DNA of 64,000 bases from Gammaproteobacteria bacterium (GTDB taxonomy: Bacteria; Pseudomonadota; Gammaproteobacteria; Steroidobacterales; Rariloculaceae). Every line of letters starts with the position of its first letter. The stretch's first letter is position 1. The stretch is from the NCBI GenBank assembly GCA_017577365.2, contig PKRJ02000002.1, positions 5,921 to 69,920 of the forward strand. Reading direction: 5' to 3'. The translations under genes and the position numbers were made by a program. Below, in pieces: positions 37,686-58,362 of the stretch. Below the pieces are notes generated by a model that saw nothing but the letters and a program-made list of their open reading frames with translations, was not told where the DNA came from and did not search any database.

Positions 37686-37701
37686 TGGCACGACGATTGC
37701 T
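37686..37701 (+). promoter_or_regulatory. sigma54 promoter of the TonB receptor/ureohydrolase operon
   Basis: TGGCAC-GACGA-TTGCT, a perfect consensus, with an IHF-like TAAGTCATTGTT at 37654 and palindromes at 37500-37551. Confidence 0.78.
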
Positions 37702-37844
37702 GGAACCTTTTCGCCACGGCACACAAAGCGATCGCAGGCAGCACTCGTTGTTGCAATGCAATCGTCGCGTCGTGCGCGGAGCCATCACACAGAACGTCGA
37801 TCACAAGGAAGCGTCGAGAACTTCCTTCGCGCAGCGGAGCGACC

Positions 37845-41371: not shown

Positions 41372-42796
41372 ATGCATGTTCGTGCTTCATCGGCGCGCCG
41401 GCTCGCGCGCCACGCCGCCGCGGCCTGTATCTCGGCCGTGGCCGCTCCCGCGATCGCGCAGGTCGATCTTCCGGACTCGCTGCGCCCCAAGCTCGAGCTG
41501 CTCACTCCCGAGCAGCGCGAGTTCCTCGGAAGCGATTTCGTCGAGCGGTTCGCGCCGAGCCGAGAAAAGCTGATCGAAGCGCTCGAAAAGCGCTCGCCCG
41601 AGGAGGTCAAGGCGTACGTCGACGCGATGATGTGGGTCGAGCGTCAACAGAAATTCGAGGCAGACCGTGACTTCGCCGCGATCCCGCTGAATACCGAATC
41701 GCCGACCTTCAACGCATGGAAGATTCGCCGGCCGCGAAGCTTCGATCCGCCTCGGGAGCCTGGACCGATCGACCTTTCGCGCTACATGGGAGGCGGGAGC
41801 GGCATTCCGACGTTCGCGGGCGCGCCGGTAGCGCTGACGCCCGAAGATCTCGTCGCCGGTAACGTCGAGGTGGCGATCGTCGGCGCGCCGCTCAACATGG
41901 GGTCCGGTTGGCGGGACGCTGACCACGGCCCGCTCGCGCTGCGGCTCATGGGCCGTTACATGGCGGGCAACGACCAGTATACGCAGGTGAACCCGTCGGA
42001 GGTGCTCAACATCGTCGACTACGGCGACATCGCCATCGACAACGACAGCACGGAGCGCAGCATGCAGCACGTGCGCGAGGTGGTCAGAGAGATCGCCCAG
42101 ACGGGCGCGATTCCCGTGATCATCGGCGGCGATCACTCGCTCGAGTATCCGGACGTCGCCGCGATGATCGACGTGTACGGCAAAGGCAACGTCACGATCA
42201 TTCACTTCGACGCCCACTACGACATCGGACGCAACCGGCCTCATCTCATCGATCACGGGCAGCCGATCTATCGCTTGCTGTCGGAAGGCCTCATCAAGGG
42301 CGGCGATTACATCCAGGTCGGTCTGCGCGCGAGCGGACCGGACGAAAAGACGTACCGATGGATGCGCGAGGAAGGCTTCCGCTATCACACGATGGCCGAG
42401 GTCGAGCGGTACGGATGGGACCACGTTCTCGAGGAGGTCCTGGCGGAGGCCAAAGCGAACGGCCGCAGGCTCTTCATCTCGTTCGACGTGGACGTGCTCG
42501 ACCCGTCGTACATCGCCGGCACCGGGACGCCGGTGCCGGGCGGGCTGACGCCGCGGGAGGCGATTCCGATCGTGCGTCGGCTCTGCGCGGAGAACGACAT
42601 GGTCGGCTTCGACCTGGTCGAGGTCGCTCCCGAGCTCGATCCGACGTATGTGACGAGCCTGCACAGCGCGTTCATCGTCAAGGCATGCCTGACCGGAATC
42701 GCCATGAGAAAGCTCGGGCTCACGGAGCCGCACTACCTGAATCCCGTGACGCTCGATCACGCGCAGGACGGTCGCCGCGAGGAGAACGAACGATGA
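41372..42796 (+). CDS. Secreted agmatinase/ureohydrolase family protein with N-terminal extension; metal site intact
   Basis: Signal peptide ending AIA-Q; GGDHS, HFDAHYD, DHG, IQVGLR, SFDVDVLDP, PGGLT and DLVEVAP motifs. Confidence 0.9.
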   Translation: MHVRASSARRLARHAAAACISAVAAPAIAQVDLPDSLRPKLELLTPEQREFLGSDFVERFAPSREKLIEALEKRSPEEVKAYVDAMMWVERQQKFEADRDFAAIPLNTESPTFNAWKIRRPRSFDPPREPGPIDLSRYMGGGSGIPTFAGAPVALTPEDLVAGNVEVAIVGAPLNMGSGWRDADHGPLALRLMGRYMAGNDQYTQVNPSEVLNIVDYGDIAIDNDSTERSMQHVREVVREIAQTGAIPVIIGGDHSLEYPDVAAMIDVYGKGNVTIIHFDAHYDIGRNRPHLIDHGQPIYRLLSEGLIKGGDYIQVGLRASGPDEKTYRWMREEGFRYHTMAEVERYGWDHVLEEVLAEAKANGRRLFISFDVDVLDPSYIAGTGTPVPGGLTPREAIPIVRRLCAENDMVGFDLVEVAPELDPTYVTSLHSAFIVKACLTGIAMRKLGLTEPHYLNPVTLDHAQDGRREENER

Positions 42797-43668
42797 CGAA
42801 GACAACGCGCGGCTTCCTGTTCGCCGCGACTTTCTGCTTGCTGCAGCTCGGAGGCGCGACGGCATCGGCCGACGACGTGACCGCGCCGGTCGAGCCGAGC
42901 CTCGAGCACAAGCTGAAGGCGCTCTCTCCGAAGCAGCGCGAGTTTCTCGAAGGGCCGGGTCCCCTGCGGCTCTTTCCGAGTCGCGGAAAGCTCGTCGAGG
43001 AGCTCGAGCGGCGGTCGCCGGACGAGGTGAGACAGCTCGTCGCCGACATGATGGCCGCGGTGGCCGCGTTCGCCTACCGGCCCGGCGAGGACATGGGTGC
43101 GATTCCGTTGAATCCCGAGTCGCCGCAGTTCAACTCGTTCAAGGTGCTGAAGCCGCGCGCCCTCGACGAGCTCGAGCGCGCGCCGGGCCCCTTCAGCGTC
43201 AAGCGTTACATCTACGAGAGAGGAGGCATACCCACGTTCGCCGGCGCGCCCGTGGCGCTGACTCCCGAGGATCTCGTCGCCGGTGCGGTCGACGTCGCGA
43301 TCGCCGGCATCCCGCAGAACATGAGCAGCGGAAAGCGGGACGCTCGCAACGGTCCGAACGCGATGCGCGCGATGCACGGCATCGCCGATCGCGACCTCTA
43401 CTCGATGATCGATCCGGGCGCCGTGCTGAACATCGTCGATTACGGCGACTTCGCCGTCGATCGAATGAGCCTCGAGCGCGGTCTCGATCATGCCTACGAC
43501 ATGGTGCTCGACGTCGTCGCCGCGGGCGCCGTGCCGTTCCTCGTCGGCGGCGATCACTCGCTCATGTATCCGAGCGTCAAGGCCGTGCGCGACGTGCGTC
43601 CCGGCGAGCCGCTCGGCGTCGTGCATTTCGGCGCGCACCACAACGCCGAGCGCGACGGTTCTCGCTCG
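42793..43668 (+). pseudogene. Second ureohydrolase paralogue, N-terminal part (interrupted)
   Basis: Collinear with the upstream paralogue (GIPTFAGAPVALTPEDLVAG identical; GGDHS), then homology stops after HFGAHHNAER. Confidence 0.85.
43662..43668 (+). repeat. 7-bp direct repeat TCGCTCG at the left junction of the inserted block
   Basis: The same heptamer occurs at 57813-57819. It lies in a 9-bp inverted repeat, CGCCGAGCG-N10-CGCTCGGCG. Confidence 0.6.
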
Positions 43669-43745
43669 GCGGCGGGCGGAGCGGCTCCGCCGCCGACGCC
43701 GCGCCGCCTCCGCCTGCGCTGCCGACGTCGACCGAGATTCCAGGC

Positions 43746-44579
43746 GTGATCGCGGGCGGCGAGACATGGCGCGTCGTCTGGTCCTGGGAAGGCAACAATG
43801 CGGACGGCATCATCGCGGACGACGGCGGCAGGATGCTCTTCGCGAACAACGATGCGAGCAACGTGATGCGCCTCGACCCGGCGACCGGGCTCGCCGAGAT
43901 CATTCACGAGGACACGCGGACCGGCGGCGCGCTGTCGCGCAACAAGACCGGCGCGCTGTTCGTCGCCGCGCGCGGATTGCGCTCGGGGATCATTCAGCTC
44001 GAGCCCGAGCGCAGGGAGCTCGCGGCCTCGTTTCGCGGCGAGCCGCTCGAGTGCGTCGGCGGTGTGCTGAACGACCTCGCCGCCGACGCTCGCGGCGGCG
44101 TCTATTTCACGGTCACCGGAACGGGGCTTTTCTACGCGAACCCGCAGGGCGAGGTCACGCAGTACGGCGAGGGGATCACGGCCGCGAACGGCGTCGTGCT
44201 GAGCCCGGACGAGACGACGCTCTACGTCACGAACGGGGAGGTCGTGCTCGCGTTCGACGTCGAGGCCGACGGTGCGCTCGCGAACGGGCGCGAGTTCGGG
44301 CGGCTTCGCGGCGGACGGAGCGGCGACGGCTCGGCGGTCGACAGCGAAGGGCGCCTCTACGTTTCCACCGGCTCGTCCGTCGACGTCTTTGCGCCGGACG
44401 GGGAGTTCCTCGGGTCGATCCCGGGCCCGCAGGGCATTCACGGCGTCGCCTTCGGCGGCCCGGACAAGAAGACGCTGTTCGGCATCGTGTTCTACGGCGG
44501 CTGGGGCACGCCGAGCGCGCGCAATCAGGTCGTCGCGATCCCGATGATCGCGCAAGGCTACTTGGGGCGAGCGAAGTAG
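43746..44579 (+). CDS. SMP-30/gluconolactonase family protein, probably 5'-truncated
   Basis: NADG, LNDL, ANGVVLSPDE and GDGSAVDSEGRLY motifs. The frame continues upstream as a Pro/Ala linker to the junction with no RBS or signal peptide. Confidence 0.85.
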   Translation: MIAGGETWRVVWSWEGNNADGIIADDGGRMLFANNDASNVMRLDPATGLAEIIHEDTRTGGALSRNKTGALFVAARGLRSGIIQLEPERRELAASFRGEPLECVGGVLNDLAADARGGVYFTVTGTGLFYANPQGEVTQYGEGITAANGVVLSPDETTLYVTNGEVVLAFDVEADGALANGREFGRLRGGRSGDGSAVDSEGRLYVSTGSSVDVFAPDGEFLGSIPGPQGIHGVAFGGPDKKTLFGIVFYGGWGTPSARNQVVAIPMIAQGYLGRAK

Positions 44580-44663
44580 CCCGGCGGGGACGTGCCGCGG
44601 GAGGTTTACGATCGAGCGGCGCGTTCGGTATAAGCACGCCTTCGCCGAAGGAGAGGGGGGTCC

Positions 44664-45821
44664 GTGTCTCAACGTGCTTCGGGTCTCGATCCGGATCGCC
44701 TCGCCCATCTCAGGGCCGTCATCGAAGCGGATATCGCCGCAGGCCGCTATTTCGGCGCGGTGATCGCGGTCGCGCGGCACGGCGAGCTTGGTTTCTTCGA
44801 GGCGATCGGCCACGGCGACGAGGCGAAAACGCTCCCGCTCGCAAAGGATTCGGTCTTCTCGCTGTTCTCGCTGACGAAAGCTTTCACGAACGTGCTCGTG
44901 TTCCGCGCGATCGAGCTCGGGCAGTTCGCGTTGACGACGCGCGTCAGCGACATCATCCCCGAGTTCAAGGGCGGGCCGCGCGAGCGCGTGACGTTCTTCC
45001 ACTTGCTGACCCACACGTCGGGGCTTCCGCCCGTGTGGATTCCGAAGCCCGGGATGTACATCGATCGCCTCGACGAGATCATCCAGGCGATCTGCGAGAA
45101 CATCCACTCCATCGCACCGCCCGGCGAGCGCGTGCACTATTCGCCGCTCGTGCACCATGCGCTGATGGGCGAGGCCGTGCGGCGCTGCGATCCGCGAGGC
45201 AGAACCTATCGGCAGCTCCTCGAGGACGAGGTGCTGACGCCGCTCGGCATGAAGGACACCTCGATCGGCGTGCGCAAGGATCTCGCCGAACGGCATATCT
45301 TCCCGGACTTCCGCGGCAAGCCGCCCCAGGAGCACCTGAGCCGAAACTGCCCGGGCCCGCAGGGCGCGTTCGCGGACGAGCACGCGGAGATGCCGTGGGT
45401 CGGCGCCGTGTCCACGGTGCCCGATCTGTTCCGCTTCGCCGAGATGCTGCGCCGCGGCGGCACGCTCGACGGCCGGCGCATCGTGTCCCCGGCGATGCTG
45501 AAGCTCGCAACGCGCAACTGGACCGGGGACAAGCCGAACGAGCTCTACAAGGGCATCGCGATCAATCACGGGTGGGAGCCTTACCCGGCCTATATCGGGC
45601 TCGGCTTCAACCTCGCCGGCGAGAACGTCTGCCCGAACCTGTTCGGGACGCTCACGTCTCCGCGCACGTTCGGCAACTACGGCTCGGGCTCGACGCTCTT
45701 CTGGGTCGATCCCGAGCTCGACATGACGTTCGTCGCGTTGACCGCGGGCGTGATGCAGCCCGCGCCGAACATCGAGCGGTTCCAACGCCTGTCGGACATC
45801 GCAGCGTCGGCCGCGCTCTAG
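44664..45821 (+). CDS. Serine hydrolase, beta-lactamase class C / esterase family
   Basis: SxxK (FSLTK), LLTHTSG, PGERVHYS and PLGMKDT motifs. Confidence 0.88.
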   Translation: MSQRASGLDPDRLAHLRAVIEADIAAGRYFGAVIAVARHGELGFFEAIGHGDEAKTLPLAKDSVFSLFSLTKAFTNVLVFRAIELGQFALTTRVSDIIPEFKGGPRERVTFFHLLTHTSGLPPVWIPKPGMYIDRLDEIIQAICENIHSIAPPGERVHYSPLVHHALMGEAVRRCDPRGRTYRQLLEDEVLTPLGMKDTSIGVRKDLAERHIFPDFRGKPPQEHLSRNCPGPQGAFADEHAEMPWVGAVSTVPDLFRFAEMLRRGGTLDGRRIVSPAMLKLATRNWTGDKPNELYKGIAINHGWEPYPAYIGLGFNLAGENVCPNLFGTLTSPRTFGNYGSGSTLFWVDPELDMTFVALTAGVMQPAPNIERFQRLSDIAASAAL

Positions 45822-45960
45822 CGGATCGGCATTTGCCAGGCCGCCGTCGCCTCGCGTCTGATCGGCCGTCGTCGTTTCGTTATACTGCAGCGCAACGCAC
45901 GGCGCAGGTGCACGCGCCTGCGGCGGACGCGATCGATCGGCGACGGCTTGGGGCGGCGAC

Positions 45961-47652
45961 TTGAACACGAGCACGCAATTCGACCGAGACTACGACTACA
46001 TCGTGATCGGCGCGGGGACCGCGGGCTGCGTGCTCGCGGCTCGGCTGTCCGAGGATCCGCGGCACCGGGTCTGCCTGATCGAGGCCGGCGGATCGGAGCA
46101 GCATCCGTTCATCCGGATCCCGGCGGCCGTCGGCGCCGCGATCATGAGCCCGAAGTTCGGCTGGGGGCTGACGACGGTGCCGCAGCCTCACGTGAACGAT
46201 CGACGCATCCCGTTGCCGCGCGGCAAAGTCATCGGCGGCTCGGGCTCGATCAACGGCATGGCGTACTATCGCGGGCCCGCACAGGATTTCGACGACTGGG
46301 CTGCGATGGGGAATCCGGGCTGGTCGTATGCGGAGCTTCTGCCGTATTTCCTGCGCTCGGAGCACAACCCCGAGTACGCCGGCTCGCCGTACCACGCGAC
46401 GGGCGGCCCGATGGGCGTGAGCTTCCCGACGAGCCGTAACCGCCTCTGCGAAGCGTTCAACGCCGGCATCGCCGCGCTCGGCTACGAGTATTGCGAGGAC
46501 TTCAATGCGCCCGAGCCGCATGGCTACGGCTACCGGCAGGGCACGATCTGGAAAGGCCGACGCGTGTCCACCGCGAGCGCTTACTTGAGGCCCGCGATGC
46601 GGCGGCCGAACCTCGAGGTGCTGACCAGGACGCACGCGCGGCGGATCCTGCTCGACGGCAGACGCGCGGTCGGCGTCGAGATCCAGACGGGCGAAGGCGT
46701 GCGCAGGCTCGGAGCCCGCAAGGAAGTCGTCCTCTGCGGAGGCGCGTACCATTCGCCGCACGTGCTGATGCATTCCGGTATCGGCGACGAGCGGGACCTC
46801 AAGTCGTGGGGCATCGAGCCCCGGCACCATCTCCCGGCCGTCGGCCGCAATCTGCACGACCATCCTTCCGCGTTCGTCGTGATGGACATGGACGACCCGA
46901 CGTCGTACGGCGTGTCATGGAAGGCGCTGCCGCGCGACATCGCGAACATCGCGCAGTATCTCGTGAAGCGCACGGGGCCGCTCGCGAGCAACCTGTTCGA
47001 GACGAACGCGTACATCAAGACGCGGCCCGGCCTCGATCGGCCGGACATGCAGGTCGTCTTTCAACCGGCGAGGCGCAACATCAAGCCGTTCCCGATCCCG
47101 ATCGGGCACGGTTTCGTCGTCGCGGTCGTGTGTCTCTATCCGAAGAGCCGCGGGCGCGTGCGGCTCGCGGGCCCCGATCCGCTCGCGGCGCCGCTGATCG
47201 ATCCGGCTCTCTTGAGCGACGATGCCGACCTCGATGCGCTGATCCGCGGGCTGAAGCTCGCGAGACGAATCATCGCGCACGAAGCGTTCGCGAAGTACGA
47301 CGCGCGCGAGCGCGCACCGGGAGCATCGGTCACGGACGACGACGGCCTCGCAGCCTATATCCGGGAGACGCTCGTCACCGTGCACCATCCCGGCTCGACG
47401 TGCCGGATGGGGCCGCGCGGCGACGATACGGTCGTCGATCACGAGCTCAAGGTTCACGGCCTCGAAGGCTTGCGTGTCGCCGACGCGTCGGTCTATCCGC
47501 GCGTCGTCGGCGGCAACACGAACGCAAGCATCGTCGCGATCGCCGAGAAGGCGTCCGATATGATTCTCGGCAAGCCCGCGCCTGCGCCGATCGAGCGGCG
47601 TGCAGCCGCCGCGCCGGAAGCGGCCGACGCGCGCGAGCCGGTCGAAGCCTGA
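45961..47652 (+). CDS. GMC family oxidoreductase (choline-dehydrogenase-like)
   Basis: GAGTAG, RGKVIGGSGSINGM, GRNLHDH, HPGSTCRMG and GLRVADAS...GNTNA motifs. Confidence 0.92.
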   Translation: MNTSTQFDRDYDYIVIGAGTAGCVLAARLSEDPRHRVCLIEAGGSEQHPFIRIPAAVGAAIMSPKFGWGLTTVPQPHVNDRRIPLPRGKVIGGSGSINGMAYYRGPAQDFDDWAAMGNPGWSYAELLPYFLRSEHNPEYAGSPYHATGGPMGVSFPTSRNRLCEAFNAGIAALGYEYCEDFNAPEPHGYGYRQGTIWKGRRVSTASAYLRPAMRRPNLEVLTRTHARRILLDGRRAVGVEIQTGEGVRRLGARKEVVLCGGAYHSPHVLMHSGIGDERDLKSWGIEPRHHLPAVGRNLHDHPSAFVVMDMDDPTSYGVSWKALPRDIANIAQYLVKRTGPLASNLFETNAYIKTRPGLDRPDMQVVFQPARRNIKPFPIPIGHGFVVAVVCLYPKSRGRVRLAGPDPLAAPLIDPALLSDDADLDALIRGLKLARRIIAHEAFAKYDARERAPGASVTDDDGLAAYIRETLVTVHHPGSTCRMGPRGDDTVVDHELKVHGLEGLRVADASVYPRVVGGNTNASIVAIAEKASDMILGKPAPAPIERRAAAAPEAADAREPVEA

Positions 47653-47803
47653 TCCTGCCCGGTTTCTTCATTCGCCGTCATCGAGCGCGGCGGCGACCGC
47701 GGCAAGGTCGGCGACGAGATGCTCGAATGCGGTGTCGCGCTCGCCCACCGAGCCGAACGGCACGGTCTTGCCCGAGCCTCTGTGTCGAGGCTACGCTCGC
47801 GCC

Positions 47804-48076
47804 ATGGCCGTAGGTTGGGCCCGCGACGGGGCCGTTCAGGAACAAATCGACGCGAACGTCGAGGACGCGATCAACGCCGCGCGCAGCAGGCTGCCGACGG
47901 GCGAGAGCCTGGAGCATTGCGAAGACTGCGGCAGCGAGATCCCGAAGGCGAGGCGCGATGCGCTGCCGGGTGTTCGTCGCTGCGTGACCTGCCAGGCCGC
48001 GATCGACGACGCGGAACGCGCGGCGCCGCGCGCCGGCTACAACCGGCGCGGCAACAAGGACAGCCAGCTCCGCTAG
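47804..48076 (+). CDS. DksA/TraR family C4-type zinc-finger protein (YbiI-like)
   Basis: MAVGWARDGAVQEQID, CEDC...CVTC and YNRRGNKDSQLR. Confidence 0.9.
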   Translation: MAVGWARDGAVQEQIDANVEDAINAARSRLPTGESLEHCEDCGSEIPKARRDALPGVRRCVTCQAAIDDAERAAPRAGYNRRGNKDSQLR

Positions 48077-48404
48077 CGGGAGCGGCGCCTGCGGCGAAAC
48101 GAGAGCGAACCGCAAGCAGGCCTTCCTCGAACCTCGAACACTCAGCCTGTCTATCTTCTGGCCCATCAGGCAGAGGCGGCCGGCTCCCGTGCCGCTCGAT
48201 CGGCGCACGTTTCCGCTGCGGCCGCGCCTCGACATCGGCGTGCGGCAGTGACCGGCGGCAGCGCCGCTCTTCGCGCCGAAGCGCTTGATTTCATTGTGTT
48301 AACAACGTTAAGGCTACCGTTAATTACTTATCCCGGAATTCGCAGCCGCTAGGCTTTCCGACAACGCAACCGCGGGCTGACGATCCCGCTCACCCGTCGT
48401 TCCG

Positions 48405-50297
48405 ATGTCGGAAAGAAAAATCTCTACACAGCAGCCCGCCGCGCCGCGATGGATCGCAGTCCTCGTCGGTGCGGCATGCGCCGTCGGCGCGGCAGGCGTC
48501 CGTGCCCAGGGAGCGTCGAGCCTCGAGGAAATCGTCGTCACGTCGAGCGTCGTCGAGACGCCGCGCCGTCAGATCGGCGCCGCTGTGTCGGTCATCGACG
48601 GCGGCGAGATCGAGCTTCGCGGCTATCACTCGATCGCGGACGTGCTCCGGACGCAACCTGGAATCAGTGTCACGACGAGCGGCGGGCAGGGTAAGACGAC
48701 CTCCCTCAGAATCCGCGGCGAGGAAGCGCATCGGACGCTCCTCGTGATCGATGGCGTGAAGTCGATCGATCCGAGCAGCACGCAAGCGCAGCCGGTCTTC
48801 GACAGCTTGTTGACGACGGGGGACCTCGAGCGCATCGAGGTGCTGCGTGGGCCGCAGGGGTTCATGTACGGTGCCGACGCAGGCGGGGTCGTCAACGTGA
48901 TCACGCGCCGCGGCGAAGGCGATCTGGACGGCCGTATCGGCATCGAGCAGGGACCTTTCGACACGCGCAAGCTCGACGGCAGCGTCGCAGCCGGCAACGA
49001 GAAGGGGGACTTCTACGTTTCCATCACGGAGCTCGATACCAGAGGCTTCAACGCGATGACCTCGGATACCGTCCTCGCCGACGACGACGGCGCGGAGAAC
49101 ACGACGGTGCACGCCAAGCTCGGCTTGAATGCGGCGAGCAATCTGCGTGTGCAGCTCGTCGCGAGAGACATCGACGCGTTCACGGAATACGACGGTTGCT
49201 TCGGCGCGAATGGGCCGACGCACGTCTGCACCGGGACGATCGAGCAGAGGACCTACCGCGTCTCCGCGGACCACGACGGCGATCGTCTTGCGAATCGGAT
49301 CGCTTACAGCGAAATCGACATCGTCCGCGATGACTTCGCCGACGGAGAGCTTTCGTTCGGCACTCGGGGTGAGATCGCTCGGTTCGAGTATTCCGGCAGT
49401 TACCGTCCGACGGCCGGCACCACGATCGCTTACGGCGTGGATTTCCAGGACGAGCGCATGACGACGGCGACCGGAACGGAGCAGCGCGACCAGCGCGGTT
49501 ACTATGCCGAGTATCAGGGCGGGTTTGCCGATCGCTTCTACGTGTCGGCCGGCGTCCGGTACGACGACAACGAGGATTTCGGCACGCACACGAGCGTCAG
49601 GCTGAGTGCCGCGTACGTTCAGGATCTCGTGAGCGGCGCATCGCTGAAGTACCGCGCGAGCTACGGGACCGGATTCCGCGCCCCGAGCCTTTACGAGGTT
49701 GCCTATAATCGTGAGAGCGACACGCCGCCGGCCGCCGACACGGTGCTGCGCGAGGAACAGAGCCGCGGCTACGACGTCGGCGTCGAATATGACGGCCCCG
49801 GCGGCATGCACGTCGAGATCACGTATTTCCACCAGCGCGTGACGGACGAGATCTTTTTCGACCTCGAGGCTTTCTCCGGGTATCTCCAGTCGACGGGCAC
49901 GAGCGCGTCGAAAGGCGTCGAGCTCGCGGTGCGCGGAATCGTCCGCGAGCGCTGGCAGCTGTACGGCAATTGGACCTACAACGACACGCGGAACACGGAC
50001 GACCGGCAGCGCTGGCGCCGTCCGCGTCACCTCGCGAACGTCGGGGTGCTGTACGCGGCGCTCGACGACCGCCTGCGGATCTCCGCGAACTACAGAATAT
50101 CGAAGGACTCGATCGACATCGGCGACGTCGCGCTCGACGATTACGGCGTTCTCGACCTGTCCGCCGCGTACACGCTCGGCGAGCGCATCGAGCTCTTCGG
50201 CCGGATCGAGAATGCCGGCGACCGGGAGTACGAGGAGCTGATCGGTTATCGCACGGCGGGCCGGTCGCTGTACGCCGGCTTGCGTCTGCGGTTCTGA
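48405..50297 (+). CDS. TonB-dependent receptor, BtuB/heme-receptor size class (630 aa)
   Basis: EEIVVTS, ERIEVLRGPQGFMYGADAGGVVN, GFRAPSLYE and a C-terminal Phe. Confidence 0.92.
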   Translation: MSERKISTQQPAAPRWIAVLVGAACAVGAAGVRAQGASSLEEIVVTSSVVETPRRQIGAAVSVIDGGEIELRGYHSIADVLRTQPGISVTTSGGQGKTTSLRIRGEEAHRTLLVIDGVKSIDPSSTQAQPVFDSLLTTGDLERIEVLRGPQGFMYGADAGGVVNVITRRGEGDLDGRIGIEQGPFDTRKLDGSVAAGNEKGDFYVSITELDTRGFNAMTSDTVLADDDGAENTTVHAKLGLNAASNLRVQLVARDIDAFTEYDGCFGANGPTHVCTGTIEQRTYRVSADHDGDRLANRIAYSEIDIVRDDFADGELSFGTRGEIARFEYSGSYRPTAGTTIAYGVDFQDERMTTATGTEQRDQRGYYAEYQGGFADRFYVSAGVRYDDNEDFGTHTSVRLSAAYVQDLVSGASLKYRASYGTGFRAPSLYEVAYNRESDTPPAADTVLREEQSRGYDVGVEYDGPGGMHVEITYFHQRVTDEIFFDLEAFSGYLQSTGTSASKGVELAVRGIVRERWQLYGNWTYNDTRNTDDRQRWRRPRHLANVGVLYAALDDRLRISANYRISKDSIDIGDVALDDYGVLDLSAAYTLGERIELFGRIENAGDREYEELIGYRTAGRSLYAGLRLRF

Positions 50298-50328
50298 CCT
50301 CGCCCGCCCGGCGCGTTACGACGGAGTC

Positions 50329-50907: not shown

Positions 50908-51530
50908 ATCTTCTCGAACTTCTCGAGAATGGACTGTTCGCGCTCGGTCAGGTGCTGCGGCTGCCGGTGATGGCGCTGCTTTGGATCTGCGTGGCCGCGG
51001 CGCTCTTCATGGCGGGCTCCGCAATCGTCGATGCGCTCGCGCGGCGCCGCGAGCGGCAGGGCTTCGACGTCGAGCGGTGGCTCAAGAAGGGGCCGGTGCT
51101 CGAGGCCAGCGCGGCGCGCGAGGCCGAGCTGCCCGCGACGCTCAGGCGGATGCTCGCTCAGATCAAGTCGGCCCATGCGGAAGCCGGCCTCGCGAACGGC
51201 GGGCTCGAGCATATTCTGCTCGCGCACGAGGAGCGTATCCGCGCGCGCGTCACTGCGCCCCGGGTGCTGGTCAAGGTCGGTCCGAGCCTCGGCCTCGTCG
51301 GGACGCTGATCCCGATGGGTACCGCGCTCGCAGCGCTCGCGAGCGGCAACCTCGAGGCGATGGCGGGGCAGATGATCGTCGCGTTCACGACGACGATCAT
51401 CGGCATCGTGTGCGGCACGATTGCCTTCGTGATCCTGACCATCCGGCAGGGGTGGGTCGGCGAGACGATCAGGGAGCTCCGCTTCGTCGCGGAGCGGGTC
51501 GCCGCGGAGCTCGAGGCGGCTAAGGCGTAG
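50904..51530 (+). CDS. MotA/TolQ/ExbB proton channel family protein
   Basis: GPSLGLVGTLIPM and AFTTT motifs. Confidence 0.88.
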   Translation: MNLLELLENGLFALGQVLRLPVMALLWICVAAALFMAGSAIVDALARRRERQGFDVERWLKKGPVLEASAAREAELPATLRRMLAQIKSAHAEAGLANGGLEHILLAHEERIRARVTAPRVLVKVGPSLGLVGTLIPMGTALAALASGNLEAMAGQMIVAFTTTIIGIVCGTIAFVILTIRQGWVGETIRELRFVAERVAAELEAAKA

Positions 51531-51543
51531 GAGGAACGGACCT

Positions 51544-51876
51544 ATGGCGAGGTTCCTGAATTTGCCGCCGCCCGGAGGTGAGCCCGAGGACGATCCGCTC
51601 GCGGGCGTCGCGAACCTGTTCGACGTCTCGGTCGTGTTCATCGTCGCGCTGATGGTCACGCTGTTCTCGGTCTACCGCATCGGTGACCTGCTCGACCCGG
51701 AGGCCGAGCTCACGATGGTCATGACGAAGCCGAACGGGATGAGCGAGATCATCGTGAAGCGCGGCACCGAGATCGAAGCGTACGAGGTCACCGGCGAGAC
51801 GCTTTCCGGCGACGGCGAGCGGCTCGGTTCCGCGTACCGGCTCGCGAACGGGCAGATCATCTATGTTCCGGACTGA
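51544..51876 (+). CDS. DUF2149 family protein
   Basis: EDDPLAGVANLFDVSVVF and G...LGSAYRLANGQIIYVP motifs. Confidence 0.88.
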   Translation: MARFLNLPPPGGEPEDDPLAGVANLFDVSVVFIVALMVTLFSVYRIGDLLDPEAELTMVMTKPNGMSEIIVKRGTEIEAYEVTGETLSGDGERLGSAYRLANGQIIYVPD

Positions 51877-54800
51877 GCGCGTGCTCGCCGGTCTCGGGAT
51901 CCGCTTTCCGTCGTGGTGCCGGATTGCTGCGGCCGCGGCGACGCTGTTGCTCGCGTGCGCCGCCCGCGCGGACGACGCGATCCGCCTGACGTATCTCTTC
52001 TCCGACGGGCAGATGCCGGTCACGCTGCAGGCGTTCAAGGCGGTGCTCGCGGAGCACCCGGACCTCCGCGGCCGCGTCGAGCTCGCGTTCGTGACGGAAT
52101 CGACGCGGGCGAGGCTCGAGACGGAAACGCTTGCTTCGACCGACGTGCTCGTCGTCGACATGATGAACGAGCAGATGCTCGATCAGGTCGGCGCGGAGCA
52201 CGGCCTCGATCTGATCGCGCACGTCGCGGCACGCGGCGCCGTGCTCGTCGTCGGCGTCGGCTTGTCGGCGACGGAAAAGTTCACCGCAAAGGGCGCCGTC
52301 TTCGACGAGCGCGCGCACGCGTACTGGCAGCATTCGGGCTTCGCGAACCATGTCGGGCTCGTGAAGCTCGCGCTGACGAAGGCGGGCATCGACGGGCTCG
52401 CGCTGCCGGAGCCCCAGCCGAGCCTCGAGCTCGGCTACTACTATCCGGATCCGCAAAGCGGGTCCGGCGGCCGCGTCTTCGCGTCGTGGGCCGAGTTCGA
52501 CGCGTGGCGGCGCGCCGCGGGGAAGCACCGCCCGGGCGCGCCGAGGATCGCCGTCGGGTTCTACAAAGCAAACTACTACTCGGGCGACACGCAGGCGCTC
52601 GATGCCGTGATCGGCGAGATCGAGCGGCAGGGCGCCGAGGCGATCCCGGTGTTCGGTTATCCCGGCGCGTACGCGTTCGAGGAGCTGCTCATCGACGAGC
52701 ACGGCGTGCCGCGAGTCGACGTCGCGATGGCGTTCCTGTTCCGCTTCTCGGACTTCGAGACCGCGACCCATCTCGCCAAGCTCGACGTGCCGGTCATGAA
52801 CCTCGTGACGCTCTACGGGCGAAGCCAGCGCGAGTGGCGCGAGTCGAAGACGGGGCTCTCTATCTTCGAGGGCACGTTTCAGGTCGCGGTGCCGGAGCTC
52901 GCGGGTCTCGTGTCGCCGATCGTCGTCGGCAGCCGGGAGCGGCGCTTCGACCTCGAGACCGGCGTCTCGGTCGTGACGAGCGAGCCGATCACGTCGCGGA
53001 TCGAGATGGGCGTGAAGCGCGCGCGCCGCTTCGCGGCGCTTCGCTCGAAGCCGAACGCCGAGAAGCGCATTGCGCTGATGTACTACAACTACCCGCCCGG
53101 CAAGGCCAACATCGGTGCGAGCTATCTGAACGTCGCCGAGTCGCTCGCGAACGTGCTCGACCGCCTCGCGGCCGAAGGGTATGACGTCGGGGCAGCGTCC
53201 GACCGGTCGCCGGAAGCCGTGCTCGGCGCGATCACGACGAAGGCGCGGAACGTAGGCGGCTACGCGCCCGGCGAGCTCGATGCGTTGGTCGCCGAAGGCG
53301 ACGCGGCGCTCGTGCCGGTCGCGGACTACGAGCGCTGGCTCGCGGAGCTCGCGCCGGCGCTGCGCGAAAAGATCGTCGCGGACTGGGGCGAGCCCCGCGA
53401 CTCGAGCCTGATGGCGGTCGGTGAAGGCGCCGGGAAGCGCTTCGTCGTGCCGATCGTCCGTTATGGCAACGTGGTTCTGCTGCCGCAGCCGTCGCGCGCG
53501 TGGGGCGAGGATGGCGACAAGCTCTACCACGCGAAGGATCTCGCGCCGCATCACCAGTACGTCGCGACGTACGAATGGCTGCGCCGCGAGTTCGGCGCGG
53601 ACGCGATCGTGCATGTCGGCACGCACGGCACGCACGAGTGGCTCGACGGCAAGGACGTCGGCCAGACCGAGGAGGACGCGTCCGATGCGCTGATCGCGGA
53701 TCTCCCGAACGTCTACATCTACAACGTCGACGTCGTCGGCGAAGGCCTCATCGCACGGCGGCGCGGCCTCGCGACGCTCGTCGATCACATGGTGCCGCCG
53801 TTCGTCGAAGGCGGGCTCTATGCGGAGCTCGCGGCGCTCAACGAGCGGATCAACGATTACGACGCGGCGCTGCACAGGAATCCCGTGCTGGCCGAGGCGT
53901 TCGCCGAGGAGATTCGTGCGCAGGTCATCGCGCTCGGCATCGACAAGGATCTCGGCCTCGATCTCGGCGCGGGGCTCGATCACGAAGCGGTGCACGAGAT
54001 CATCGGGTATCTCCAGGAGCTTCGCGGGCAGAACATCCCGTACGGGCTTCATACGTTCGGTACCGCGCCCGAAGGCAAAGCGCTCGAGTCGACTGTCGAT
54101 GCGATCGTCGGCACGGACCGGAGCCTCCTGCCGAACGACGCGAAGGTCCTCGCCGACGACATGAGGGCTCGGATCGCGCAGTCGGCCTCGCGCGAGCTCG
54201 ACAGCCTCGTTGCCGCGCTCGGCGGGCGGTTCATCCCGGTAGGCACCGGGGGCGAGCCGATTCGGAATCCCGACGCGTATCCCACCGGCAAGAACTTCTA
54301 CAGCATCGATCCGGACAAGGTGCCGAAGCGTGCCGCATGGGAGCTCGGCGTGAAGCTCGCCGACGAGATGCTCGCGCAGCATCTCGAGGAGCACGGCCGC
54401 TACCCCGAGAAGGTGTCGTTCGTGATCTGGGGCGACGAGACCCTGCGCCACGAGGGCGTCGTCGAGTCGCAGATCTTTCATCTGCTCGGCACACGGCCGG
54501 TCTGGGACGAGCGCGACAAGGTCGTCGGCATCGACGTCGTGCCCCGGAGCCTGCTCGGCAGGCCGCGTATCGATATCGTCGTCGCGAGCGCGGCCGAGGG
54601 CATGTTCAGCAACGTGACGCTCCTGATCGACGAGGCCGTGCAGCGCGTGAAGATGCTCGACGAGGCGGACAACCTCGTGCGCCGGCACTATCTCGCGACG
54701 CGCGCGGCGCTGCTCGAGCGCGGCTACTCGGAGGAGCAGGCCGACCGTCGCGCCGGCGTTCGCATCTTCGACGAGCCGCCCGGCACGTACAACCTCGCCG

Positions 54801-55900
54801 TGTCGAAGATCGCCGAGTCGAGCGGCACATGGGACTCGGATCGCGCGCTCGGCGACGACTACCTGCGTCGCATGGGGCACGGCTTCGGCAACGGTTTCTG
54901 GGGCGAGCCGATGGAGGACGTGTTCCGGCTCGCGCTCTCGGGCACCGAGAAGGTCGTGCACTCGAGCTCGACGATGCTCTACGGCGCGCTCGACAACGAC
55001 GACTTCTATATGTACATGGGCGGGCTCGCGAGCGCGATCCGCAACCTCGACGGCGCTACGCCGGATCTCGTCGTCACCAATACGCGCGATCCGTCGAATC
55101 CGCAGATGACGTCCCTCGAGAAGTTCATCGGCGGCGAGTTCCGCAGCCGTTACGTGAACCCGACCTGGATCGAGGGCATGCAGGCCGAAGGCTACGCCGG
55201 CGCCGGTGCGATGCGCGAGTTCGTCGAGTACATGTGGGGCTGGGACGCGACCGTCACGGACGTCATCGACGACGCGATGTGGCAGGAGGTCTTCGACGTC
55301 TACGTCGCGGACAAGCACGACCTCGGCATGCGGGAGTTCTTCGCCGAGCACTCGCCGGCCGCGTTCCAGGACATCACGGCACGGATGCTCGAGACGGTGC
55401 GCAAGGCGTACTGGGCCGCGGACGAGGCGACGGTCGCGGCGCTCGTCGAGGCGCACATCGAGACCGTGCTCGAGCACGGCATCGCGTGCTCGGACACGAC
55501 CTGCGGCAATCCGCGTCTCTTGCGATTCATCGTCGAGCAGGCCGTCGCGGCAGGCGTGCCCGCTCCGGCCGTCGAGGCGTACGTCGACGCGCTCGAGCGC
55601 GTGATCGGCGCGCCGATAGAGGAGCTCGCGGCCGCGGCGGAGGCCTGGGCACGGCAGAACGACGCGCGCATCGCGAGCCGCGTGATCCCCGGCGCGGAAT
55701 CGCTCGCCGAGGAGTCGGTCGATTCCGCCGAGCTTCGCGGCTACCTGTTGCAGTCCGTCGAGCGGGGCGCGCCGAAGGATGCCGGCGAGCCGCGGCGGCT
55801 TGCACGCGTGGAGCCGGGCACGACCGGCGTGCTCTGGTTCGGCGCGTTCGTGATCGGCGTCCTGCTCTTATGGCGGGCACGTCACCGTTACGCCGCGTGA
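51863..55900 (+). CDS. cobN: CobN/Mg-chelatase H family protein with signal peptide and C-terminal membrane anchor
   Basis: YNYPPGK, LPQP, PHHQY, HVGTHGTHEWL, PTGKNF, RPRID and NPTWIEGM...GYAGA motifs; the start may instead be GTG 51881. Confidence 0.9.
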   Translation: MFRTERVLAGLGIRFPSWCRIAAAAATLLLACAARADDAIRLTYLFSDGQMPVTLQAFKAVLAEHPDLRGRVELAFVTESTRARLETETLASTDVLVVDMMNEQMLDQVGAEHGLDLIAHVAARGAVLVVGVGLSATEKFTAKGAVFDERAHAYWQHSGFANHVGLVKLALTKAGIDGLALPEPQPSLELGYYYPDPQSGSGGRVFASWAEFDAWRRAAGKHRPGAPRIAVGFYKANYYSGDTQALDAVIGEIERQGAEAIPVFGYPGAYAFEELLIDEHGVPRVDVAMAFLFRFSDFETATHLAKLDVPVMNLVTLYGRSQREWRESKTGLSIFEGTFQVAVPELAGLVSPIVVGSRERRFDLETGVSVVTSEPITSRIEMGVKRARRFAALRSKPNAEKRIALMYYNYPPGKANIGASYLNVAESLANVLDRLAAEGYDVGAASDRSPEAVLGAITTKARNVGGYAPGELDALVAEGDAALVPVADYERWLAELAPALREKIVADWGEPRDSSLMAVGEGAGKRFVVPIVRYGNVVLLPQPSRAWGEDGDKLYHAKDLAPHHQYVATYEWLRREFGADAIVHVGTHGTHEWLDGKDVGQTEEDASDALIADLPNVYIYNVDVVGEGLIARRRGLATLVDHMVPPFVEGGLYAELAALNERINDYDAALHRNPVLAEAFAEEIRAQVIALGIDKDLGLDLGAGLDHEAVHEIIGYLQELRGQNIPYGLHTFGTAPEGKALESTVDAIVGTDRSLLPNDAKVLADDMRARIAQSASRELDSLVAALGGRFIPVGTGGEPIRNPDAYPTGKNFYSIDPDKVPKRAAWELGVKLADEMLAQHLEEHGRYPEKVSFVIWGDETLRHEGVVESQIFHLLGTRPVWDERDKVVGIDVVPRSLLGRPRIDIVVASAAEGMFSNVTLLIDEAVQRVKMLDEADNLVRRHYLATRAALLERGYSEEQADRRAGVRIFDEPPGTYNLAVSKIAESSGTWDSDRALGDDYLRRMGHGFGNGFWGEPMEDVFRLALSGTEKVVHSSSTMLYGALDNDDFYMYMGGLASAIRNLDGATPDLVVTNTRDPSNPQMTSLEKFIGGEFRSRYVNPTWIEGMQAEGYAGAGAMREFVEYMWGWDATVTDVIDDAMWQEVFDVYVADKHDLGMREFFAEHSPAAFQDITARMLETVRKAYWAADEATVAALVEAHIETVLEHGIACSDTTCGNPRLLRFIVEQAVAAGVPAPAVEAYVDALERVIGAPIEELAAAAEAWARQNDARIASRVIPGAESLAEESVDSAELRGYLLQSVERGAPKDAGEPRRLARVEPGTTGVLWFGAFVIGVLLLWRARHRYAA

Positions 55901-55946
55901 TTCGGGCCTGCTGGTCACCGGGCACGTTCGGCGATAGAGTGCGCGC

Positions 55947-56849
55947 ATGATGACGCGCCGAACCCTCCTCGCGCTGCCGTTCGCGGCCGGCCTCGCGCAG
56001 ATGCTGCACGCGCAGCCCGCGGGCCGCATGCAGCTCGCGCTGCATCAGAACACTTCGGGCGGCGCCGGCTTTCGCGGTTCGCTCGAAGGCTGGGCGCGCG
56101 CCGGCATCCGCTACGTCGAGCTGACGGACGTGCTGCTCGACGAGTTTCTCGAGAACGATACGCTCGACGGCGCGCGCCGGCTCCTCGCCGACCTCGGCCT
56201 GACCCCGGTGTCCGCGGCCGCCGTGCTGCCTGACGTATGGATACCGGGTCCCGAGCGCGAGGCATCGCTCGAGACGTGGCGCAAGCGCTGCGAGCAGTTC
56301 GCCGCGCTCGGGCTCGACAGGATCTACTGCCCGTCGATCACGACGCGGCCCGTCACGGCCGAGGATTTCGCGGCGACGCCGGACTGCATCCGCGAGGTCG
56401 GCGAGATCACGCGAGGCTTCGGTCTCACGGCGATGATCGAGTTCGCGCGGACGTCGACGCATCTCGCGACACTGCCGTCTACGCTCGCGGTGATCCGCGA
56501 GGCCGCGCATCCGAACGTCCGGCCGATGCTCGACTTCTTCCATTTCTGGTCCGGGCTCGGGAAGTTCGAGGATCTCGATCTCATCGAGCACGGCGAGCTC
56601 GCGCACGTGCACTTCCAGGATCTGAAGGACGGGCCGCGCGAGCTGATCGACAACGACTGGCGCCTGATTCCGGGCGACGGCGTCGCGCCGGTCGTGCGGA
56701 TCCTGCGCAAGCTCGCCGAGAAGGGCTACTCGGGGCCGCTGTCCGTCGAGCTCTTCCGCAGCGAGTTCGTCGACGGTGATCCGTTCGAGGTCGCCCGGGA
56801 GATCCGCGAGAAGTGCGAGGCGGTCATGAGCGCCGCCGGCGTGCTGTGA
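55947..56849 (+). CDS. Sugar phosphate isomerase/epimerase (xylose-isomerase-like TIM barrel) with a Tat-like signal
   Basis: TRRTLL N-terminus; MIEF, DFFH, HVHFQD, PGDG and SVELF motifs. Confidence 0.85.
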   Translation: MMTRRTLLALPFAAGLAQMLHAQPAGRMQLALHQNTSGGAGFRGSLEGWARAGIRYVELTDVLLDEFLENDTLDGARRLLADLGLTPVSAAAVLPDVWIPGPEREASLETWRKRCEQFAALGLDRIYCPSITTRPVTAEDFAATPDCIREVGEITRGFGLTAMIEFARTSTHLATLPSTLAVIREAAHPNVRPMLDFFHFWSGLGKFEDLDLIEHGELAHVHFQDLKDGPRELIDNDWRLIPGDGVAPVVRILRKLAEKGYSGPLSVELFRSEFVDGDPFEVAREIREKCEAVMSAAGVL

Positions 56850-56866
56850 TCGACTGACGCGGCCGG

Positions 56867-57814
56867 TCAGCGCGACTTCTTGGTCGGCTTCTTTTTCGCC
56901 GCCTTCTTCCGAGTCGCCTTCGCAGTCCGCTTCTTCGCGGCCTTTTTCGCGCGGGTTTTCTTCGCCGCACGCTTGGCCGGACGGCGTTGTGACTGCTTCG
57001 CGGTCTTTTTGGTGGTCTTCTTGGCAGTCTTCTTGGCGGTCTTGGTCGTCTTCTTGGCCGTCTTCTTCGCTGCCTTTTTAGCCGCCTTCTTAGCCGTCTT
57101 CTTAGCCGTCTTCTTTTTCGACTTCTTCGCTGTCTTCTTGCCGGCGCTCGCCTTCGTGGTCCTCTTACCTTTCGTGGAGGTGGTCTTGGCCTTCGTTGCT
57201 TTCTGCGCCGATGCTTTCTTCGCGGCCTTCTTCTTTGCAGCCTTCTTGTTTGCGGCCTTCTTTCTCTCCGCCTTCTTCGGGGGCGCCTCCTCTCCCGCAG
57301 GCGTCCTCGTCGCTGCCTTCTTCGTCGCCCGCTTCTCCTTCGCAGCCTTCACTGCCTCCGGCGCGGTCTCTTCCGCCGGCGCGTCGGTCCAGACCGGCGT
57401 CGAGCGCGCTTCGTACTCCGCCGTCGTGCCGCCGTCCGACCGTAAAGCCGCATCCGCGTCGGATTCGTCCGCGTCGGATGCATTCGTGTCGCCGCCGGAC
57501 GAGGGCGCCGCGTCCGCGGCGACGACGTGCAGCGCGAATGCCGCGCCGTACGGATCGAGCACCTGGGCGATGCGGTCTCCGTTCGGGACGTCCATCGGGC
57601 CGTTCTGCACGGATCCGCGCGCGGCCTCGAGCTTATCGAGCGTCGCCGCGAGGTCGGTCACCCGAACGTAGCTGAGCCACGCCGGGTCGCCGGCATCCTT
57701 GTCGTAAATGCCGCCGAGCTCCGTGTCGCCGCGGCCGAAGATCAGATACACGCCCGTCGGCCCGACGTCGGGCTCGCGGATCTTCTCCCAGCCGAAGAGC
57801 TCGCTGTAGAAGTC
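56867..57814 (-). CDS. VOC/glyoxalase-domain protein with a Lys/Ala-rich histone-H1-like tail, 5'-truncated
   Basis: The frame extends upstream of the track start as DFYSELFGWEK...WLSYVRV...GPMDVPNGDRIAQVLDPYGAAFAL, then KKAA/KKTA repeats. Homology is lost above about 57815. Confidence 0.8.
   Translation of the reverse strand, partial: DFYSELFGWEKIREPDVGPTGVYLIFGRGDTELGGIYDKDAGDPAWLSYVRVTDLAATLDKLEAARGSVQNGPMDVPNGDRIAQVLDPYGAAFALHVVAADAAPSSGGDTNASDADESDADAALRSDGGTTAEYEARSTPVWTDAPAEETAPEAVKAAKEKRATKKAATRTPAGEEAPPKKAERKKAANKKAAKKKAAKKASAQKATKAKTTSTKGKRTTKASAGKKTAKKSKKKTAKKTAKKAAKKAAKKTAKKTTKTAKKTAKKTTKKTAKQSQRRPAKRAAKKTRAKKAAKKRTAKATRKKAAKKKPTKKSR
56880..57260 (-). repeat. Coding low-complexity repeats (KKTA/KKAA tetrapeptides)
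   Basis: Recurrent 12-bp-period units such as TCTTAGCCGTCT on the plus strand. Confidence 0.8.
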
Positions 57815-57819
57815 GCTCG
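57813..57819 (+). repeat. 7-bp direct repeat TCGCTCG at the right junction of the inserted block
   Basis: Matches 43662-43668; the offset of 14151 bp is a multiple of 3. Confidence 0.6.
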
Positions 57820-58362
57820 CACACGATCTCCGACCGCCAGGCCGTCTACCGGCTGCTCGCCGAGGGCGTGATCGAGGGCAAGCACCTGATCCAGGTCGGC
57901 CTGCGCGGACCGCAGCTCGACCTCGAGACGCTCGAGTGGATGCGCGAGCAGGGCATTCGCTACCACACGATGGCGGAGGTGGCCTACCGCGGCTGGGACG
58001 CCGTCATGGAGCGCGTGCTCGCCGAGGCCAAGGCCGGGCCGGACCGCGTCTACGTGTCGTTCGACGTGAGCGTCATCGACCCGGTCGAGCTCGCGGCCGC
58101 CGGCCGCGCCGTTCCGGGCGGCTTGATGCTTCGCGAGGTCATTCCGCTCGTGCGGCGGCTCTGCGCCGAAACGCGGATCGTCGGGTTCGAGATCATGGAT
58201 CTCGCGCCGATGCTCGATCTGAGCTACCGGAGCGCGATGAACGCGAACTACGTGATGAACGCGTGTCTCTCCGGTATCGCGATGCGGAAGATGGGCGTGA
58301 CCGAGGAGAATTACATGCATCCTCTCGTTCTCGACCACGGCCAGGGAACGCCGGCGGAGTAG
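57820..58362 (+). pseudogene. Second ureohydrolase paralogue, C-terminal part
   Basis: HTISDRQAVYRLLAEGVIEGKHLIQVGLRGP...SFDVSVIDP...ACLSGIAMRKMG aligns with the first paralogue from where 42793-43668 stops. Confidence 0.85.

Follow-up and report, generated by a model that had tools for sequence, protein, structure and literature searches.

A conserved degenerate ureohydrolase paralogue as the predicted partner of an exported ureohydrolase, and its recent interruption in a gammaproteobacterial genome

We analyzed a stretch of 64,000 nucleotides (the window) from a gammaproteobacterium of the family Rariloculaceae (assembly GCA_017577365.2, contig PKRJ02000002.1, positions 5,921 to 69,920), which carries two tandem genes of the ureohydrolase family, here called A and B. 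Comparison of these genes with their homologues indicates that A and B are probably a catalyst and its conserved pseudoenzyme partner, and that they represent a family of exported gene pairs. An exported pair of one active and one inactive subunit had been proposed by a previous sequence-only reading of the window. The conserved clade to which B belongs, its adjacency to A and the signal peptides of both proteins speak for this proposal, but in the genome under study B is broken: it was interrupted recently by a fragment from another species of the same genus, and the system is freshly inactivated. An intact B allele still circulates. The central features are distributed as follows (window coordinates):

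41372..42796, + strand: ureohydrolase A, predicted catalytic subunit, predicted to be exported (PF00491, E = 4e-73)
42793..43658, + strand: 5' part of ureohydrolase B, codons 1-288 and two bases of codon 289
43659..57815, no strand: foreign insert of 14,157 bp splitting B
57816..58362, + strand: 3' part of ureohydrolase B, last base of codon 289, codons 290-470 and stop

The open reading frame (ORF) of A is listed as 41288-42796, and translation likely starts at Met29 of this frame, at 41372. The ATG of B lies on the TGA of A (ATGA, 42793-42796), an overlap already noticed in the sequence-only reading, with GAGGAG located 8 nt upstream. The 5' part of B carries the signal peptide, a helical N-domain and the motifs GGDHS and HFGAHHN, the 3' part the motifs TISDRQA, SFDVSVIDP and GFEIMDLAP, and neither half contains an internal stop. 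The motifs of A and B, as given by the translations and by the family alignment, compare as follows:

First ligand His site: GGDHS in A, GGDHS in B
DAHxD site: HFDAHYD in A, HFGAHHN in B
DHG site: LIDHGQP in A, TISDRQA in B
DxD site: SFDVDVLDP in A, SFDVSVIDP in B
DLVE site: GFDLVEVAP in A, GFEIMDLAP in B

A possesses the His of DHG and the Glu of DLVE, which we take to be the counterparts of the catalytic His141 and Glu277 of rat arginase; in B both are replaced by Asp. All the changes from A to B that had been read from the sequence alone (DAHYD to GAHHN, DHG to SDR, DVD to DVS and DLVE to EIMD) are present in the translations and in the alignment. The ligands of the metformin hydrolase subunit MetCa (H158, D183, H185, D187, D276 and D278, as listed in an excerpt of PMC11271267) were used as a yardstick. 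On this scale A has six of the six ligands of the binuclear site; in B the corresponding residues are H, G, H, N, D and S, i.e. three ligand Asp are replaced (by G, N and S) and three of six remain. The claimed loss of three ligand Asp and of the conserved His on a preserved scaffold is thus borne out by the alignment, by the profile PF00491 and by the fold model described below. With a cutoff of 22 bits, PF00491 scores 246.7 bits on A, 74.7 on the 5' part of B and 96.9 on its 3' part; on B the match runs over profile positions 2-125 before 43658 (E = 1.1e-20) and 148-276 after 57816 (E = 1.9e-27). Within the genome, A matches the two pieces of B with 48% and 54% identity (E about 1e-74 (8.9e-74) and 1e-62). 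The agmatinase, formimidoylglutamase and arginase equivalogs of NCBIfam remain under their cutoff of 302 bits for both proteins, with best scores of 195 bits for A and 131 bits for B.

Judging from the homologues, the substitutions in B are a conserved signature of its clade and not a decay of the window copy. We collected 118 listed homologues of 160-511 aa. As many as 112 are of the B-type, one of them truncated at the C-terminus, and the other six are A-types with every ligand. The B-type signature consists of [GS] and [ND] in the DAHxD motif, SD[RQ..], D-x-S and E-x-x-D. The SDR change, which had been regarded as less certain owing to its position beside the junction with the insert, is real: it is found in the intact allele P0127 (see below), and SD[RQxx] occurs in all 112 B-type homologues. 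A second set comprises 70 loci, obtained by a scan of one genome per species and retrieved with the B-type motifs, so that the presence of B in them is by construction and its adjacency to A is not; they include near-duplicates, and counts over these loci overstate independence. They contain 161 arginase-family ORFs, of which 85 are A-types (HDHDDD plus His and Glu) and 76 are B-types. In each of the 75 B-type ORFs that extend over the site, the second Asp of DxD is Ser. Most B-type ORFs (54) have three ligands replaced; one is replaced in 2 ORFs, two in 8, four in 9 and five in 3. Orthologues of B therefore do not retain the ligands, the degenerate signature being carried by 112 of the 118 homologues. 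Of the 113 columns with a conservation of 90% or more among the other 62 B-types, P0127 matches 111.

Among the 76 B-type genes, 74 have an A-type gene as their immediate neighbour on the same strand; the two unpaired ones correspond to a contig edge and to an overlapping ORF call. Conversely, 78 of the 85 A-types have a B neighbour. The order is b-A in 34 loci (b standing for the B-type gene) and A-b in the clade of the window, where the arrangement is often TonB-dependent receptor (TBDR)-A-b-(A-b)-peptidyl-prolyl isomerase (PPIase)-HupE. With a lenient nearest-start heuristic, 17 of 32 A-to-b junctions show a stop/start overlap of 4 or 1 nt. In two b-A loci (L044 and L058) the pair is the sole conserved unit, and the neighbours give no shared functional clue. 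Two particular arrangements were also observed. In loci L081, L088, L090, L094 and L095, A-types without B occur as A-A or as a single A beside PPIase/HupE. In Pseudohongiella-type loci (L027, L028, L029 and L037-L040, also L026, L030, L032 and L075) two successive A-b pairs, or A-b-A, are found between the receptor and PPIase-HupE; these loci are possible multi-isozyme systems.

Trees were rooted on 10-11 conventional arginase-family proteins of relatives. In a FastTree phylogeny of 63 A, 63 B and 11 outgroup rows, the B-types form one clade with an SH-like support of 100. The same clade obtains 100 in the SH-like approximate likelihood ratio test (SH-aLRT) of IQ-TREE, run on every third row with one long outgroup row omitted. 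This clade branches from within the A-types; its sister group consists of 7 A rows in one tree and of a single A row, with a support of 96, in the IQ-TREE phylogeny. The B-types therefore have a single origin, in an A-type gene that was already exported. The A and B of the window fall in matching clades of 14 rows (supports 99 and 98) which comprise the same 13 loci.

Among 40 genomes of the same genus, family or order we found no B orthologue (best E = 1.5e-16, on the catalytic domain only), and the analysis of selection therefore drew on distant carriers. Between the window and the orthologous locus L105, which are 80-84% identical, the ratio of nonsynonymous to synonymous substitution rates (dN/dS, or omega) is 0.149 for A (dS 0.60) and 0.182 for B (dS 0.56), the two parts of B being counted separately and then summed. 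In the closest locus pairs omega ranges from 0.03 to 0.09 for A and from 0.04 to 0.13 for B. Over the distant carriers the median is 0.16 for A and 0.21 for B, for the 50 of 435 locus pairs that pass the dS filter, dS being near saturation in most of the distant pairs. The substitutions of B are thus conserved, and B is under purifying selection.

To characterize the scaffold, the intact form of B (470 residues) was modelled. The model has the three-layer alpha/beta arginase fold with a mean confidence (predicted local distance difference test, pLDDT) of 85.7. Its matches with 3nip, 9fek, 7esr, 3nio and 8snk have E values from 1e-20 to 4e-23 and template modelling (TM) scores, relative to the target, of 0.73-0.89; only about 312-326 of the 470 residues align to solved ureohydrolases. 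A helical domain is predicted with confidence for residues 35-92. Both A and B possess a signal peptide and an N-terminal extension, about 140 residues long, and the solved ureohydrolases have neither. The N-terminus of A reads MHVRASSARRLARHAAAACISAVAAPAIAQ. All the family members inspected start with a basic, a hydrophobic and an AxA-like segment. The assignment of signal peptides relied on visual inspection and a crude rule rather than on a trained predictor; the rule is passed by 103 of 116 family proteins, and most of those that fail, B included, miss it by one polar residue. Export of A by the twin-arginine translocation (Tat) pathway was considered and rejected, the RR of its leader being absent from other A-types. 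The Sec route appears likelier, and the metal would in that case be acquired in the periplasm.

Several observations weigh against a non-catalytic partner role of B in such an exported system, besides the near-duplicate loci, the saturation of dS and the crude assignment of signal peptides mentioned above. Most B-types retain three ligands, and the His of DAHxD is kept in 69 of 76, the first Asp of DxD in 75 of 76. The B-type residues which substitute catalytic ones are themselves highly conserved, and a one-metal or otherwise altered activity of B is conceivable. Seven of the 85 A-types have no adjacent B (in the five loci listed above), so that A-types apparently stand alone in some lineages. 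Finally, no Urease_alpha match was obtained in the genome of the window, which is 93.6% complete.

The alternative that survives best is that B-types are neo-functionalised stand-alone periplasmic proteins, such as a binding or sensor protein or an enzyme with one metal or none, which form no obligatory hetero-oligomer with A. The half of the ligand set that remains, the signal peptide of B, its own strongly conserved replacements (SD[RQ], D-x-S, E-x-x-D) and the occurrence of some A-types without B all fit this alternative, as does the frequent assembly of arginase-fold proteins into homo-oligomers, MetCb alone being a homohexamer according to an excerpt of PMC11271267. A stand-alone protein does not, however, account for the position of 74 of 76 B-types next to A, for the frequent stop/start overlaps or for the matching A and B clades. 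In addition, the sole characterised degenerate paralogues of ureohydrolases, MefH beta and MetCb, are obligate partners. We therefore regard this alternative as rather unlikely. Conservation, a single origin, adjacency, shared inheritance and purifying selection lend good support, at the family level, to the reading of A and B as a catalyst and a pseudoenzyme partner.

In the window itself B is split between codons 289 and 290, and the span given in the sequence-only reading (42793-58362) takes in the insert. The insert (43659-57815) measures 14,157 bp, give or take 1 nt owing to a shared G. The 5' frame of B continues into it and meets a stop at 43747-43749. B being broken by insertion, an A/B heteromer cannot form in this genome. 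Empty sites are available in loci L104 and L105: both align up to 43658 and then directly from 57815/6 onwards, without target duplication or loss. L105 has the complete order TBDR-A-B-PPIase-HupE-copper amine oxidase. The origin of the insert is given by the congener G006, which matches the window from 43651 to 57815 with 98-99% identity on three contigs whose flanks are unlike those of the window; left of 37305, the window and G006 are syntenic at 67-82% identity only. The native flanks of G006 were not found in the genome of the window (G000) above about 80% identity, and this genome has its own copies of several insert genes, 75-84% identical, on other contigs. The genes of the insert are, in order:

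Insert gene 1: SGL/gluconolactonase-like, 5'-truncated (Pfam)
Insert gene 2: beta-lactamase-family gene (Pfam)
Insert gene 3: GMC oxidoreductase (Pfam)
Insert gene 4: ORF of no assigned function
Insert gene 5: TonB receptor (Pfam)
Insert gene 6, 50541-51530: MotA/ExbB-like (Pfam)
Insert gene 7, 51544-51876: DUF2149 (Pfam)
Insert gene 8: CobN-like chelatase subunit of 1345 aa (Pfam)
Insert gene 9: xylose-isomerase-like TIM barrel (Pfam)
Insert gene 10, ORF 56867-57751, - strand: glyoxalase-domain gene, 5'-truncated

The two end genes are whole in the donor, with 360 codons for the SGL gene and 476 codons for the minus-strand gene; in the insert they miss their first ~52 and ~165 codons, respectively. 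Two further observations concern the content of the insert. Positions 48405-55900 form a module made of the TonB-dependent receptor, the MotA/ExbB-like gene, DUF2149 and the CobN-like gene; in the related locus of the congener G005 the flanking genes are present and this module is absent. The 3' part of the glyoxalase-domain gene (56876-57158) contains a 12-nt periodic repeat, with 17 copies in family D1, and 12 nt are lacking at 57015 in the donor-type sequencing runs X18 and X19.

Both the interrupted and the intact forms of B were recovered elsewhere. The intact allele P0127, of 470 aa, is present on 5 contigs and equals the first 289/290 residues of the window B followed by its last 180/181. 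The same protein cluster includes a partial intact form (P0125) and forms truncated with a junction tail (P0126, on 8 contigs, and P0124). The intact join 43658-57816 was not seen among 15 of the 55 joints, those listed, in four runs; P0127 and P0125 are the records that document the intact allele. Contigs of 7.3 and 7.6 kb from X3 and X9, two runs of different studies, extend across the left junction, and L106 spans the right one with 99.9% identity. Sixteen runs contain no less than 0.91 of the words of the junction stretch; the holders are 20 in number, from 11 studies, and 2 may be the source. In X18 and X19 the donor arrangement continues past both ends of the insert. Runs X3 and X9 also show a 3-nt insertion (CCG) at 43709, which corresponds to one more Arg in the junction tails of P0126 and P0004 than in that of P0002, the window form.

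A mobile element (transposon or integrative island) targeting B is a very improbable explanation of the insert. It would agree with a discrete 14-kb block and its clean junctions, but no target-site duplication is seen, no transposase or integrase family was found by Pfam among the insert ORFs, and none of the repeats listed (the 20 largest direct families out of at least 60, and the 25 longest inverted pairs out of 214) pairs the two ends. Both terminal genes are cut compared with the donor, and the same genes run into ordinary flanks in G006 and G005. Capture of foreign DNA by end-joining at a break is plausible but unproven: the 14,157-bp chromosomal fragment of the congener species would have been ligated into B at a break, and end-joining repair is consistent with the case because neither target duplication nor loss is observed. 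This genome has two tandem Ku homologues, of 145.6 and 108.8 bits (G000:C93:6259-7582).

An artefact of assembly or binning deserves mention in a metagenome-assembled genome that is a draft of 214 contigs, all the more as the insert is 98-99% identical to a species co-occurring in some runs and as the unitigs of X3 and X9 are broken at the right junction. We consider it extremely improbable, given that the two junctions interrupt B at one and the same codon and share no more than 1 nt, that each of them is bridged by independent data (the left one in two runs of different studies, the right one by L106), and that the junction stretch is present in 16 runs and the junction-tail proteins on 8 contigs. 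The idea that B is a drifting pseudogene whose ligand losses are mere decay of the window copy, suggested by an interruption which precludes any full-length protein in this genome, can practically be discarded: it is refuted at the family level by the same substitutions in 112 of the 118 homologues and in 76 of the 161 ORFs of the loci, and, for this copy, by a dN/dS of 0.182, 111 of 113 conserved columns kept, no internal stop and an intact, otherwise identical allele.

The remaining genes of the operon are the following:

37533..41288, + strand: TonB-dependent outer-membrane receptor, first operon gene (Pfam Plug 2.8e-17, TonB_dep_Rec_b-barrel 3.7e-32)
58420..59328, + strand: PPIC-type PPIase, candidate SurA/PpiD-like periplasmic chaperone (PF13145, 3.7e-11)
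59079..60350 as listed, + strand: HupE/UreJ_2 membrane protein (PF13795, 2.2e-39)
60381..62339, + strand: copper amine oxidase, last gene of the operon (PF01179, 1.6e-126)

The receptor ORF begins at 37533 as listed, and its homology to L105 starts at 37870; its true start is probably near 37.8 kb. An orthologous receptor lies upstream of the pair in 17 of the 70 loci, and also in L105. The PPIase gene is present in 24 of 70 related loci, downstream of the pair in the clade of the window, and HupE in 20 of 70. The listed ORF of HupE/UreJ_2 overlaps that of the PPIase; its homologue in locus L036 has 344 aa, and the true start is probably near 59.3 kb. No NCBIfam family scores above its cutoff for A, B, the PPIase or HupE, and the copper amine oxidase reaches 582 bits with the NCBIfam primary-amine oxidase, under the cutoff of 651. 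This last gene is found in L105 and L106 and in none of the 70 genome loci of the family; it looks like a lineage-specific addition and hints at an amine product that is oxidised in the periplasm. The synteny shared with congeners (67-82% identity) stops at about 37305, after a DUF4159 gene. From about 37305 to at least 64000, insert excepted, five congeners gave no DNA match, which places the entire ureohydrolase operon in an accessory island.

In locus L036 the block TBDR-A-b-PPIase-HupE is followed by a urea ATP-binding cassette (ABC) transporter, and in L041 the pair adjoins ureD/E/F. Urt or urease-accessory genes lie within 10 kb of the pair in 21 of 70 loci. HupE/UreJ had been taken in the sequence-only reading as a hint of nickel. 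A HupE_UreJ_2 gene is indeed present in the operon, but the hint is weakened and ambiguous: in relatives HupE adjoins the Urt and UreD genes, and since in the closest loci it sits between the pair and the urea-transporter or urease-accessory genes, it may serve urease and not the ureohydrolase. No HypA or HypB family match was found by Pfam among the operon ORFs scanned. In the genome of the window (G000:C98:3-1205) we observed a UrtA-like urea-binding protein cut by the contig start, 77% identical to that of L036, which is gammaproteobacterial.

These results suggest the following scheme. A-type members, which keep the binuclear metal site, would be the catalysts. B-types go back to one duplication of an exported A-type gene, after which most of them lost three of six ligands and the equivalents of the catalytic His and Glu; they would since have been kept next to A and co-inherited with it as a non-catalytic partner. 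By analogy with MfmAB/MefH/MetCaCb, B may join A in the periplasm as a hetero-oligomer, stabilise it and shape its pocket. The operon context points to a guanidino compound taken up by the TonB-dependent receptor and hydrolysed in the periplasm to urea and an amine. In relatives the urea would then pass to Urt/urease, and in the lineage of the window the copper amine oxidase would take over the amine. On a tentative view, which we put forward with less assurance than the pairing itself, this is an old, independently evolved and widespread Sec-exported A/B hetero-oligomer with an N-terminal helical domain specific to the family, metallated in the periplasm, and the core of a previously undescribed periplasmic pathway. 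Marine and soil Proteobacteria would use this pathway to obtain nitrogen from a guanidino compound imported via TonB, and would deliver the urea to Urt/urease.

If this is correct, the pair would be a second, independent, far more widespread and exported origin of the pseudo-subunit-dependent design of ureohydrolases, which would then be no recent oddity of metformin degraders. With an exported pair, one has to ask how metals reach a binuclear site outside the cytoplasm; such a pair also points to a possible unrecognised periplasmic step in the use of guanidino nitrogen, tied to urea transporters and urease in marine Gammaproteobacteria. Carriers exist in culture: Gluconacetobacter johannae DSM 13595, Sphingobium algorifonticola TLA-22, Alteromonas confluentis KCTC 42603, Thalassotalea mangrovi ZS-4, Paraglaciecola marina D3211 and Pseudohongiella sp. 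O18. In compost communities, the interrupted allele and the intact one would constitute a natural knock-out pair, and the A-type loci devoid of B are useful for asking whether A works alone. The insertion is also a clean and datable case of inter-species DNA, probably captured at a break, without mobile-element machinery.

A literature search, judged mostly from titles and the opening of abstracts, returned no paper on an exported or periplasmic ureohydrolase pair. In sequence and structure, A and B are matched best by the guanidinobutyrase GbuA and the guanidinopropionase GpuA of Pseudomonas aeruginosa (3nio, 3nip). Guanidinobutyrase 3nio is the best solved relative of A (E = 8.6e-44), and it is also the best match of a B orthologue, with E = 9.4e-36. 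The fold is common to A and B, and the ligand set is common to A; unlike A and B, the two P. aeruginosa enzymes form homo-oligomers in the cytoplasm, have about 320 residues and lack both a signal peptide and an N-terminal domain. The Ni-dependent guanidine hydrolases GdmH (7esr) and Nitrospira guanidinase (9fek) also have the arginase fold and are among the top structure matches of the B model, but they are single-gene cytoplasmic enzymes, GdmH presumably relying on dedicated nickel chaperones. A second tandem arrangement, said to be independently evolved, is mentioned in an excerpt of PMC11399263 for putative Limnocylindrales; it is tandem like A/B, and the comparison extends to this mention alone.

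The closest analogue is the metformin hydrolase. According to excerpts of two reports (PMC11399263, PMC11271267), the MefH/MetCaCb complex is an alpha2beta4 assembly in which the metal is present in alpha only and beta is a metal-free pseudoenzyme. Each subunit is inactive alone, alpha is poorly soluble alone, the N-terminus of beta caps the alpha pocket, and hypA, hypB and hupE belong to the operon (same excerpts). MfmAB/MefH/MetCaCb and the dimethylguanidine hydrolase DmgH (8snf, 8ryi, 8x3g) resemble A/B in their tandem co-oriented genes, with one full binuclear site and one degenerate, conserved paralogue, in the presence of hupE in or near the operon and, for DmgH, in a link with urea or urease genes. 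The comparability with MfmAB put forward in the sequence-only reading therefore holds for the tandem of a complete and a degenerate gene and not for orthology, the matches having E values of only 1e-15 to 1e-22. A matches MefH alpha with 2.5e-18 and beta with 7e-17; the B orthologue matches beta with 4.6e-22 (81.7 bits) and alpha with 3.9e-15 (58.9 bits), and we read its higher score with beta as a probable side effect of divergence. Because A and B match each other far better than they match MefH, and because B is nested in exported A-types, the two pairs do not appear orthologous; on the scores, and on trees built without MefH sequences, the duplication that gave A and B is separate from that of MfmAB/MefH. 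Four to five of six ligands are lost in MefH beta and MetCb, compared with mostly three of six in B-types, and no HypA or HypB was seen among the A/B operon ORFs scanned. In contrast with the cytoplasmic MfmAB/MefH, the A/B proteins appear to be exported and have an additional N-terminal domain of about 140 residues, and their family is widespread and old, not recent.

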